A stretch of DNA of 64,000 nt from Escherichia phage PMBT57, in the sequence record MG770228.1; one strand, written 5' to 3'. The notes under the pieces were generated by a model, which was not told the origin of the DNA, ran no database searches, and saw only the letters and a list, made by a program, of their open reading frames with translations. Both the position numbers and the translations under genes were made by a program. Below are positions 8,056 to 9,124 of this stretch, piece after piece (positions within the stretch are counted from its first letter, which is position 1; each line of letters begins with the position of its first letter).

Positions 8056-8166
8056 ATTTGAAAGAACTCTTATTTTGGTTACCGCAAAAGAAGTGAAAAA
8101 TGTTGTGGAAAACTACTTCCCAATTAGGTTCGAATCCTAAACCAGAGTAAGAGTTCTTTCGAATTG
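8054..8166 (+). ncRNA. structured RNA module B: 19-bp closing stem enclosing a tRNA-type T arm
   Basis: 8054-8072 pairs with 8148-8166 (18 Watson-Crick pairs plus one G-U). Inside are TGGTT/AACCA and TTAGG-TTCGAAT-CCTAA. No ORF. It ends 8 nt before tRNA-Pro. Confidence 0.5.
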
Positions 8167-8174
8167 AAGATTTA

Positions 8175-8251
8175 CAGGATATAGCTCAGTTTGGTAGAGC
8201 GTCTGCTTTGGGAGCAGAGTGTCGTAGGTTCGAATCCTGCTATCCTGACCA
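8175..8251 (+). tRNA. tRNA-Pro (TGG), CCA encoded
   Basis: Acceptor CAGGATA/TATCCTG, anticodon arm TCTGC-TTTGGGA-GCAGA, T arm GTAGG-TTCGAAT-CCTGC. Confidence 0.92.
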
Positions 8252-8253
8252 AA

Positions 8254-8337
8254 TTAGTGCTCTGGTATATTACTTTTAACCCCTAGGTTATGCCACAGTA
8301 ATACAACAGATTGGGTCATCTGAAACCAGAGCACTAA
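8254..8337 (+). ncRNA. structured RNA module C: 13-bp closing stem with two internal hairpins
   Basis: 8254-8266 (TTAGTGCTCTGGT) pairs perfectly with 8325-8337 (ACCAGAGCACTAA). Inner stems are TATTACT/AGTAATA and CAGAT/ATCTG. It starts 2 nt after tRNA-Pro. Confidence 0.45.
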
Positions 8338-8455
8338 CCTAATGTGTGGGATGTAACAGTTAAATCCAGTTGCCGGAAGTGCAATTCTAGATACGCTGCC
8401 AATGTGTGAACGGTAAGGCTGTACAGGACTCGGACTCCCATCCCACCTCCTTATT

Positions 8456-8552
8456 TGAACCAGGTATGAACGGCTTACTTAGTATTAACTGCATAGGGGT
8501 ATGTTAGGGATACTTAGGTGGTAAGCAGTTGGTAAGAATCCAACATGGTTCA
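8456..8552 (+). pseudogene. possible decayed or interrupted tRNA-like relic
   Basis: A 7-bp acceptor-like stem TGAACCA/TGGTTCA (8456-62 / 8546-52) has an adjacent 5-bp/7-nt-loop arm GTTGG-TAAGAAT-CCAAC (8528-44). There is no CCA, and I could not fold a convincing D or anticodon arm. Confidence 0.25.
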
Positions 8553-8698
8553 TTCCCTATTAGCAGTAACATAGTCCTGAGTACGTGTGCTCTAAAGACA
8601 ATATTGGTGAGACAGTCCAATAGCTGCTAAATTAAATTCGTCCATTCCTCTTGGATGTGTAGCGAGTGAAGGTAACACTTAAAAATCCATGACCCATA

Positions 8699-8730
8699 GA
8701 AGCCTCCAGGATTAACTGGAGGCTTTTTTA
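8699..8730 (+). terminator. intrinsic terminator closing the tRNA/ncRNA locus
   Basis: AGCCTCCAG (8701-09) pairs with CTGGAGGCT (8716-24), followed by T6. Confidence 0.8.
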
Positions 8731-8752
8731 TTTAATTAAATAAGGAAGCAAG

Positions 8753-9124
8753 ATGAACCGTATTACTGAAGAACATATTGATAGCATCATTGAAGGTGTT
8801 TACTACTTCAATATGGCTAAAGCTGTAGAGAATGAAGCAGTTCTGATTCCTGAAGACCATTTAAAAGCATTGAGTACAACTACTGTTTGTGCACTGGTTA
8901 TTTCTAATGGGTTCACTATTACTGGTAAATCTGCTTGTGTTGACCCTAATACCTTCAATGAGGAGTTAGGTAAGAAATATGCTTACGAACAGGCCATTGA
9001 TAAGGTATGGGAATTGGAAGGCTATCTGCTTAAGCAAAACCTGTATGAGAAAGCTCAGAGCCAGGAAATGCTAAAAGGATTCCTGCAAGATGACAACTGT
9101 GAAGGTGGGGGCTGTAAAATCTAA
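8753..9124 (+). CDS. hypothetical protein (N4 gp48 position)
   Basis: 123 aa with an AAGGAAG RBS. The segment TGKSACVDPNTFNEELGKKYAYEQAIDKVWELEGYLL resembles the conserved phage N4-gp49/Sf6-gp66-type family as I recall it; unverified. Confidence 0.75.
   Translation: MNRITEEHIDSIIEGVYYFNMAKAVENEAVLIPEDHLKALSTTTVCALVISNGFTITGKSACVDPNTFNEELGKKYAYEQAIDKVWELEGYLLKQNLYEKAQSQEMLKGFLQDDNCEGGGCKI

Follow-up and report, generated by a model that had tools for sequence, protein, structure and literature searches.

The closest described counterparts of the element reported here are the small stable RNAs of phage T4, which annotates rnaC (species 1) and rnaD (species 2) in its transfer RNA (tRNA) cluster, where they abut tRNA-Arg. 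Stability and processing are proven for both T4 RNAs, and rnaC folds with terminally paired ends and a T-arm; the role of rnaC and rnaD is a decades-old open question. The tRNA itself is a cloverleaf with a 7-base-pair (bp) acceptor stem, a D-arm, a 7-nucleotide (nt) anticodon loop, and a T-arm whose loop follows GTTCRANYC. A third comparison is offered by the YrlA RNAs, which have T- and D-arm-like stem-loops, a GNCGAA sequence in the 5' strand, and an adjacent Ro60/Rsr (TROVE) gene (PMC4201824). In this work, we describe module C, an 84-nt non-coding element in the tRNA array of Escherichia phage PMBT57, which lies in a stretch of 64,000 nt (sequence record MG770228.1, hereafter the window) and is predicted to form a self-closing three-way junction. 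Module C is a real and statistically solid element, narrowly distributed and modestly novel, of a known kind. It belongs to no curated RNA family and, by function, is placed beside the small RNAs other than tRNAs that phage tRNA clusters encode.

An earlier note on this DNA, made from the letters alone, had described module C as a perfect 13-bp stem closing two internal hairpins, without a T-loop consensus, and this description stands. Indeed, TTAGTGCTCTGGT and ACCAGAGCACTAA are 100% complementary and separated by 58 nt, RNA folding of the + strand recovers the three-way junction, and both hairpins are present in the minimum-free-energy (MFE) and centroid structures. ARAGORN finds no tRNA in the module and Rfam has no match at E<=10. 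The module starts 2 nt behind tRNA-Pro, again as the earlier note had it, because ARAGORN places this tRNA, including its CCA, at 8175-8251. From 5' to 3', the predicted fold comprises one strand of the 13-bp helix, an unpaired A, hairpin 1 (a 7-bp outer stem, an internal loop, a 5-bp apical stem, which the earlier description lacked, and a CCUA loop), the strand CAA, hairpin 2 with its UGGGUC loop, the strand AA, and the second strand of the helix.

The predicted energy of the + strand is -29.8 kcal/mol, compared to -15.05 +/- 2.68 for 200 shuffled sequences (z-score of -5.5), none of which folds as well. The same domain forms, unchanged, inside a 489-nt fold of the surrounding and downstream sequence and in the local folding of the whole array. 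We also scanned the whole window for perfect inverted repeats of at least 13 bp with loops of up to 120 nt, using 60 Markov-simulated sequences as the null. Only three sites were found (0.1 expected), those of module A (7835-7906), module B (8060-8160), and module C, all within 500 bp of each other and inside the tRNA array. Because of this rarity and of the z-score, we regard the structure of module C as real and far beyond chance, and the 84-base stretch very probably folds, as modelled, into a tight three-armed RNA. That A, B, and C are the sole long perfect inverted repeats in 64 kb also bears out the pattern that had been noticed at first reading, in which a tRNA or tRNA-like element is followed by a long-stem module. 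The same pattern, with a long stem 0-5 nt from a CCA end, recurs in phages G7C, KP8, PBM-2, BaqKoxi, an IME11-like phage, and Pollock, and further modules that we call K and S show a similar arrangement in KP8, BaqKoxi, PBM-2, and Pollock. Since it is seen in all relatives examined, we consider this pattern a genuine recurrent design of these arrays.

The locus is of the N4 type, as had been guessed. Positions 7823-8700 match Escherichia phage N4 and its close relatives (AL25, SPSP, VEc25, Jura, OLB145, and others) at 98-100%, and the coordinates of the array region are those in record OW991345. Phage N4 is a classic model phage, in which the tRNA array is flanked by gp47 and gp48 and located upstream of the leftward gene for the virion RNA polymerase, and about 0.9 kb of the interval from gp47 to gp48 is annotated only as three or four tRNAs. 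The distance from the gp47 stop to the gp48 start is 1.3 kb, and ARAGORN places four tRNAs in it (Asn, Ser, Thr, and Pro), all on the + strand, with gaps of 5 nt between Asn and Ser and 4 nt between Ser and Thr, in agreement with the 4-5 nt given before. We found no plausible open reading frame (ORF) of at least 40 amino acids on either strand of this gap, nor any plausible small ORF, and a scan of the 1.3-kb unit for a sigma-70-like promoter was also negative. The unit is closed by an intrinsic terminator (Table 1). A CCAAATT motif ends tRNA-Pro and is also found behind tRNA-Asn, tRNA-Ser, and the tRNA-like element X, so that CCAA(A)TT ends every tRNA and X; behind tRNA-Pro, its last TT forms the two opening bases of the closing stem of module C. 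Local folding splits the non-tRNA part of the array into the self-closed modules A, X, B, C, D, E, F, and G. Module C and its siblings reveal a dense, unannotated array of structured RNAs in a model phage. The searchable literature yielded neither a transcriptome of N4 infection nor a prior description of the array region.

We compared module C with known RNA families and systems. A search of 7400-8800 with 4227 Rfam models at E<=10 returned nothing for it other than a meaningless microRNA match on the - strand. Module C resembles a tRNA (RF00005) in its size, in the terminal helix joining its ends, in its tRNA-like spacing after CCA-AAUU, and in the CC(U) that follows it. It differs from a tRNA by a three-way instead of a four-way junction, by a terminal helix of 13 bp instead of 7 bp, and by the lack of a D-arm, a T-loop consensus, and a 7-nt anticodon loop. 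An identity as a tRNA was rejected: ARAGORN reports only Asn, Ser, Thr, and Pro, RF00005 does not match, and the loops read CCTA and TGGGTC.

The likeness to T4 rnaC and rnaD lies in build and in context. All are non-coding, strongly folded, and from tRNA-sized to about 140 nt long, the ends of rnaC are paired, and module C is likewise found in a phage tRNA operon, on the tRNA strand, and abutting tRNA genes. No similarity between them was detected in sequence or with a covariance model, R1, which we built from the module C sequences of N4 and Pollock and ran on the T4 locus. Moreover, rnaC has a canonical T-arm, which module C lacks; on this point, its N4 neighbours X, B, and E come nearer to rnaC. 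Stability and processing, proven for the T4 RNAs, are in module C what the analogy suggests.

With YrlA (RF02553), module C shares a modular organization, a long stem in which the 5' and 3' ends pair, a presence in some phages, and a locus rich in tRNA mimicry. It has neither the T- nor the D-arm-like stem-loop of YrlA, which module B, with a T-arm inside a 27-bp stem, resembles more. An identity with YrlA was rejected on the lack of an Rfam match over module C and of GNCGAA in TTAGTGCTCTGGT; the weak YrlA matches in the array lie over tRNA T-arms. No Ro60/Rsr gene is annotated near the N4 array, whose neighbours are gp47 and gp48, although no window-wide scan for TROVE was made. Three-way-junction ribozymes carry a conserved catalytic core in their junction strands, such as CUGAUGA ... 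GAAA. Hammerhead and twister-sister ribozymes were rejected, as Rfam gave no match at E<=10 and neither the junction strands A, CAA, and AA nor their complements fit. Module C was not retained as an intrinsic terminator either, because its stem is followed by CCTAATG and not, as the GC-rich hairpin of a terminator is, by a U tract, and because the terminator scan finds only 8698-8727.

Outside N4-type genomes, module C was found in one phage. A BLAST search of 50,697 phage records retrieved it at 100% identity in 16 N4-type records (15 phages), at 92% identity in Pollock, a member of another subfamily (Humphriesvirinae), and nowhere else. The Pollock copy sits after a tRNA-Leu instead of a tRNA-Pro, with an identical CCAAA spacer, and the homology between the two phages stops exactly at the final base of the closing stem; in Pollock, module E follows directly and D is absent. 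The G7C-like phages carry X, D, E, and F without C. Because of this pattern of presence and absence, the modules of the array behave as independent cassettes, as phage tRNA genes do, and module C is, to judge from its distribution, an accessory and exchangeable one. A mini tRNA-like element, "Y", that precedes D in the G7C-like phages was considered as a homologue of module C and rejected, the alignment being unconvincing. The tRNA-Pro genes of N4 and Pollock are identical at 58 of 77 positions (75%), compared to 92% for module C, which suggests either that E. coli phages have recently exchanged the cassette or that the constraint on it is unusually strong.

Wider searches returned no further copy. 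Pattern scans of IMG/VR with CAGATTGGGTCATCTG and CAACAGNNTGGGTCNNCTGAAA gave homologues only in N4 and Pollock, all other matches being due to chance, and the closing-stem pattern matched only unrelated palindromes or coding sequence in IMG/VR and the JGI metagenomes (two palindromes in JGI). Two pattern scans of GTDB genomes gave none or chance matches, 5,426 E. coli genomes gave no match, and the plasmid matches, all short and weak (E~9), were put down to chance.

The N4 and Pollock modules, the two distinct sequences available, differ at seven positions. Three of these changes are C to U at a C-G pair and produce a G-U wobble on the + strand, where the - strand would have an A-C mismatch. 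There is one such site in the closing helix (ACC to ATC in the 3' arm), one in the outer stem of hairpin 1, and one in its apical stem, so that, of five paired positions with a substitution, three retain pairing on the + strand as G-U. Two further changes fall in a loop or internal loop and leave pairing unaffected. The Pollock copy folds better on the + strand (-27.0 kcal/mol) than on the - strand (-22.7 kcal/mol). The closing stem is the best-conserved helix of the module. No change falls in the 27 nt of hairpin 2 and both junctions, a run that is not significant at 8% divergence. These substitutions fit an RNA structure formed by the strand of the tRNAs, a weak indication when taken alone; the three G-U-preserving changes together with the analogy to neighbouring modules weakly suggest selection on structure.

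With moderate confidence, and by analogy with T4 rnaC and rnaD, we propose that module C is a tRNA-sized, self-closing RNA cassette that is co-transcribed with the tRNAs, handled by the tRNA-processing machinery of the host, and released as a small stable RNA. A transcript running from left to right as far as the terminator would carry it along with the four tRNAs (Asn, Ser, Thr, and Pro) and six or more other closed modules, and module C would fold autonomously, its 13-bp terminal helix joining the 5' and 3' ends as the acceptor stem of a tRNA does. Since module C stands at tRNA spacing behind a CCA-AA(UU) linker, the host machinery would most likely treat it as one more cassette of the array. 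An endonuclease cut in the A/U linker, of the RNase E type or by RNase P at the base of the helix, followed by 3' trimming, would free the 3' end of tRNA-Pro. The RNA that remains, about 85-90 nt long, would be shielded from exonucleases by the pairing of its ends and would be a small stable RNA. The 13-bp helix, which is about as long as the stacked acceptor/T-arm minihelix and is followed by CC(U), would set and protect the ends of the module. In E. coli tRNA operons, RNase E uses single-stranded A/U-rich sites just downstream of tRNA CCA ends, and the CCAAATT linker may be such a site. We infer the transcription, excision, and stability of module C, and any role in trans, from this set of features. 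Such an RNA could act in trans, as a decoy, a protein sponge, or a regulator, or only in cis, in the maturation of tRNA-Pro or in the insulation of folding. If module C is a stable small RNA, N4 would provide a genetically tractable system to study the role of non-tRNA RNAs in phage tRNA clusters.

Several findings weigh against this proposal. Conservation, on which the earlier note had made its idea depend, proved narrow, being limited to N4-type genomes and Pollock. Even with filters off, R1 found no structural homologue in G7C, KP8, PBM-2, BaqKoxi, a dozen N4-like loci of IMG/VR, T4, or the siphovirus VLCpiS13c, and its best score, 18 bits for the S module of BaqKoxi, is due to a shared stem core. 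The 92% identity with Pollock, against 75% for tRNA-Pro, may reflect recent transfer instead of constraint. The - strand of the N4 module folds slightly better (-32.3 kcal/mol, z-score of -4.6) than the + strand and the N4 closing stem contains no G-U pair, so the assignment of a strand depends on the Pollock copy and on the context. Two of the seven changes between N4 and Pollock break pairs of the hairpin 1 outer stem in the N4 register; in Pollock, this stem re-pairs in a shifted register. Finally, none of the differences within module C is a compensatory double change, in a comparison that has no power with only two distinct sequences.

The main rival explanation, possible though clearly less probable than the one we favour, is that module C is a purely cis-acting processing or insulating spacer whose excised piece is functionless and degraded. 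Its helix would prevent mispairing with the tRNAs, position the cut after the CCA of tRNA-Pro, or offer a stacked duplex of about 20 bp to RNase III. This would explain why the long stems of relatives start near a CCA end, and why the stem after X is always CCAAUU...AAUUGG while the interiors vary freely and are very different between phages. The S-type modules also keep the outer stem and swap the interior, and the high conservation of the closing stem in module C also fits. RNase E has a reported RN|WUU preference, which the CCAAATT linker fits. The processing stalks of RNase III, such as the flanking stems of ribosomal RNA operons and the T7 R sites, are likewise long helices flanking RNA units. 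Such stalks are well matched by modules A (about 30 bp) and B (27 bp); module C, with 13 bp, is short for this enzyme, whose substrates have about two turns (at least 20 bp) of near-continuous duplex. The 13 bp of module C and the 7 bp of hairpin 1, across a single unpaired A, would reach about 20 bp if coaxially stacked. Against a mere spacer, tRNA-Asn, -Ser, and -Thr, with their gaps of 4-5 nt, are processed with no such element, the G7C-like phages do without module C, and a spacer would not need the invariant 27 nt, which, as noted above, do not stand out at this divergence. If module C is a processing element, it bears on how host enzymes mature dense phage tRNA operons. Either reading corrects the annotation, since some N4-type records place "hypothetical proteins" over the region. 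The AlfredRasser record, for instance, has them over 8252-8700.

A neutral relic of a decayed tRNA or tRNA-like gene, tolerated by the array, is unlikely. Degenerate tRNA-like pieces do occur nearby (X at 7989-8055, the T-arm in B, and the acceptor and T-like arm of E), hairpin 2, with its 5 bp, and the 3' strand of the closing helix loosely recall the topology of a T-arm and acceptor stem, and there is a likeness between the arm AGTGCTCTGGT and AGTGTTCTGGT, which is located at the 5' side of the X T-arm (inverted repeat I11). We nevertheless disfavour a relic because there is no tRNA-model signal even at E<=10, because the perfect helix is longer than any acceptor stem and a decaying gene would not gain or keep one, and because the identity among the 16 N4-type records and with Pollock exceeds that of a functional tRNA-Pro. 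The substitutions at paired sites are also biased towards those that preserve pairing.

Module C further shares with a miniature inverted-repeat transposable element (MITE) an 84-bp unit bounded by perfect 13-bp terminal inverted repeats, at which the Pollock homology ends exactly, and a cassette-like presence and absence. A TA flanks the GTGCTCTGGT...ACCAGAGCAC core, a possible TA duplication, and both strands fold about equally in N4. A DNA-level element, be it a MITE, another mobile palindrome, or a structure (cruciform or single-strand hairpin) serving recombination or replication, is nevertheless very unlikely, because module C is single-copy with no transposase nearby and no real copy in E. 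coli genomes, plasmids, GTDB genomes, or JGI metagenomes, because the repeat extends one base further and its TA, itself palindromic, is indistinguishable from a stem extension, and because the substitutions are of the RNA type, with G-U pairs in Pollock that RNA tolerates and that are mismatches in the other-strand DNA hairpin, and with siblings that favour the transcribed strand.

The closing helix of module C contains AGUGCUCU/AGAGCACU, and the degenerate octamer AGWGCWCT is enriched about 20-fold in the tRNA arrays of seven phages, with 11 occurrences in 10.2 kb (0.55 expected) and only three in 74 kb outside the arrays. Within the arrays, it always lies in closing-stem arms: those of C in N4 and Pollock, of K in Pollock and KP8, of S in BaqKoxi and Pollock, and of a module in VLCpiS13c. 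The BaqKoxi S module shares 83% identity in its interior with a module of unrelated Klebsiella and Salmonella siphoviruses, and its stem, read against that of VLCpiS13c, shows three compensatory flips that turn one polarity of the core into the other. The octamer enrichment and the likeness between S modules and siphoviruses suggest, as a lead only, a relationship among several closing stems, through descent or a common constraint. It is conceivable, although improbable, that module C belongs to a wider undescribed class of modular RNA cassettes of phage tRNA arrays, moving between unrelated phages, with a closing-helix core AGWGCWCUG / CAGWGCWCU, exchangeable interiors, and a helix serving as a handle for a common processing or mobility factor. 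A hint in this direction is that C and E are far more alike between N4 and Pollock than the tRNA-Pro genes are.

Table 1 Features of the N4-type tRNA array discussed in the text, with positions in the window.
Feature	Position	Strand	Basis	Remarks
Module A	7824-7917	+	inverted repeat I2, local folding	long imperfect hairpin (about 30 bp) directly after tRNA-Thr
Element X	7918-8058	+	local folding	tRNA-like part 7989-8055, upstream portion from 7918
Module B	8054-8166	+	inverted repeat I1, local folding	27-bp closing stem enclosing a T-arm; 5' strand opens with the CCA of X
tRNA-Pro(UGG)	8175-8251	+	ARAGORN; Rfam tRNA 68.9 bits	CCA encoded; directly upstream of module C
CCAAATT	8249-8255	+	direct-repeat family D1	CCA end and A/U linker
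Module C, whole	8254-8337	+	folding alone and in context	84-nt three-way junction, non-coding
Module C, 5' arm of closing helix	8254-8266	+	inverted repeat I6	TTAGTGCTCTGGT, holds octamer AGTGCTCT
Module C, hairpin 1 outer stem	8268-8274/8297-8303	+	MFE and centroid	TATTACT/AGTAATA
Module C, hairpin 1 apical stem	8277-8281/8286-8290	+	MFE and centroid	TAACC-CCTA-GGTTA, loop CCTA
Module C, hairpin 2	8307-8322	+	MFE and centroid	CAGAT / loop TGGGTC / ATCTG, 5 bp
Module C, 3' arm of closing helix	8325-8337	+	folding, inverted repeat I6	ACCAGAGCACTAA, then CCT
Module D	8346-8446	+		multi-branched, 9 nt downstream of C; in G7C-like phages, absent in Pollock
Module E	8456-8553	+		acceptor-like stem TGAACCA/TGGTTCA, T-like arm with loop TAAGAAT; Pollock copy L001 1592-1693
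Module F	8560-8630	+	local folding
Module G	8636-8697	+	local folding
Intrinsic terminator	8698-8727	+	terminator scan	closes the tRNA/non-coding RNA unit; strong, the single one on the + strand

The sibling modules are RNA-level structures on the + strand. They hold 4-6 G-U pairs and clearly favour the transcribed strand, with A, B, and E being 8-14 kcal/mol better on + than on - (-40.4 against -30.6 kcal/mol for A and -44.8 against -31.2 kcal/mol for B). The stem of B differs from that of its G7C homologue by compensatory changes (GAAAG/CUUUC and GUGAG/CUCAC). Among the four sequences of D, a module without an Rfam family, three pairs of the closing stem have changed in a compensatory manner, and several pairs are G-U on the + strand. 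Module E is common to N4, Pollock, and the G7C-like phages, and its T-like arm changes from GUUGG/CCAAC to GCUGG/CCAGC in Pollock, a compensatory replacement of U-A by C-G.

In element X, the acceptor stem has 7 bp, the T-arm is canonical, and a CCA is encoded, but there is neither a D-arm nor a 7-nt anticodon loop. Its identity among G7C-like, Klebsiella, and other N4-like phages is about 95%, far above that of its flanks; ARAGORN and Rfam miss the element, and some records label it tRNA-Undet or tRNA-OTHER. Stems following X were located at L020 1444-1557, L021 2121-2238, L023 1661-1788, L044, and L046-L048 of our set of loci, and the stem encloses a T-arm in N4 and in an IME11-like phage. 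The long stem after X looks like a processing stalk or a landing pad for cassettes.

Two short matches involve hairpin 2 of module C. The sequence ATGACCCA (8689-8696), upstream of the array terminator, is perfectly complementary over 8 nt to UGGGUCAU of hairpin 2, and this was the only match of a search for antisense targets of module C. The complementarity is not kept in Pollock, the G7C-like phages, which have no module C, carry AAACCCAC there, and it may be due to chance. In Pollock, about 5.5 kb from its module C (L009 938-952), 15 nt on the sense strand of a leftward ORF are identical to hairpin 2 (ACAGATTGGGTCATC). This stretch was rejected as an antisense target, being an identity and not a complementarity, and was judged to be a chance or uninterpretable match.

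The arrays of relatives contain other elements that have escaped annotation. Upstream of X, unannotated segments resembling transfer-messenger RNA (tmRNA) were seen in KP8 (L021 1610-1760), PBM-2 (L022 1311-1460), and BaqKoxi (L023 1330-1400), and further ones in Pollock (L001 2110-2270) and in VLCpiS13c (L038 1110-1300). They have a GCA resembling a resume codon and a tag frame reading ANDDVVLMAA* (ANEEMYLAVA* in VLCpiS13c); the Rfam tmRNA_permuted model gives them 27-36 bits, against a threshold of 47, and ARAGORN finds no tmRNA. The N4 window has no tmRNA-like tag, and module A stands at that position. In the GenBank record of Pollock (KM236242), four tRNAs are annotated on the strand opposite to their placement by ARAGORN and Rfam (L001 1171-1500 and 1776-2015), and CPT_Pollock81, a hypothetical protein of the same record that is probably not encoded by a real gene, overlaps non-coding modules of strong structure. 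Finally, another tRNA-like module enclosed by a long stem, with tRNA-like D- and T-arms inside a 15-bp closing stem (TAGTAAAGTGCTCTG...CAGAGCACTTTACTA), occurs in two IMG/VR contigs (L032 2335-2427 and L034 380-472), at a distance of about 1 kb from a tRNA array.

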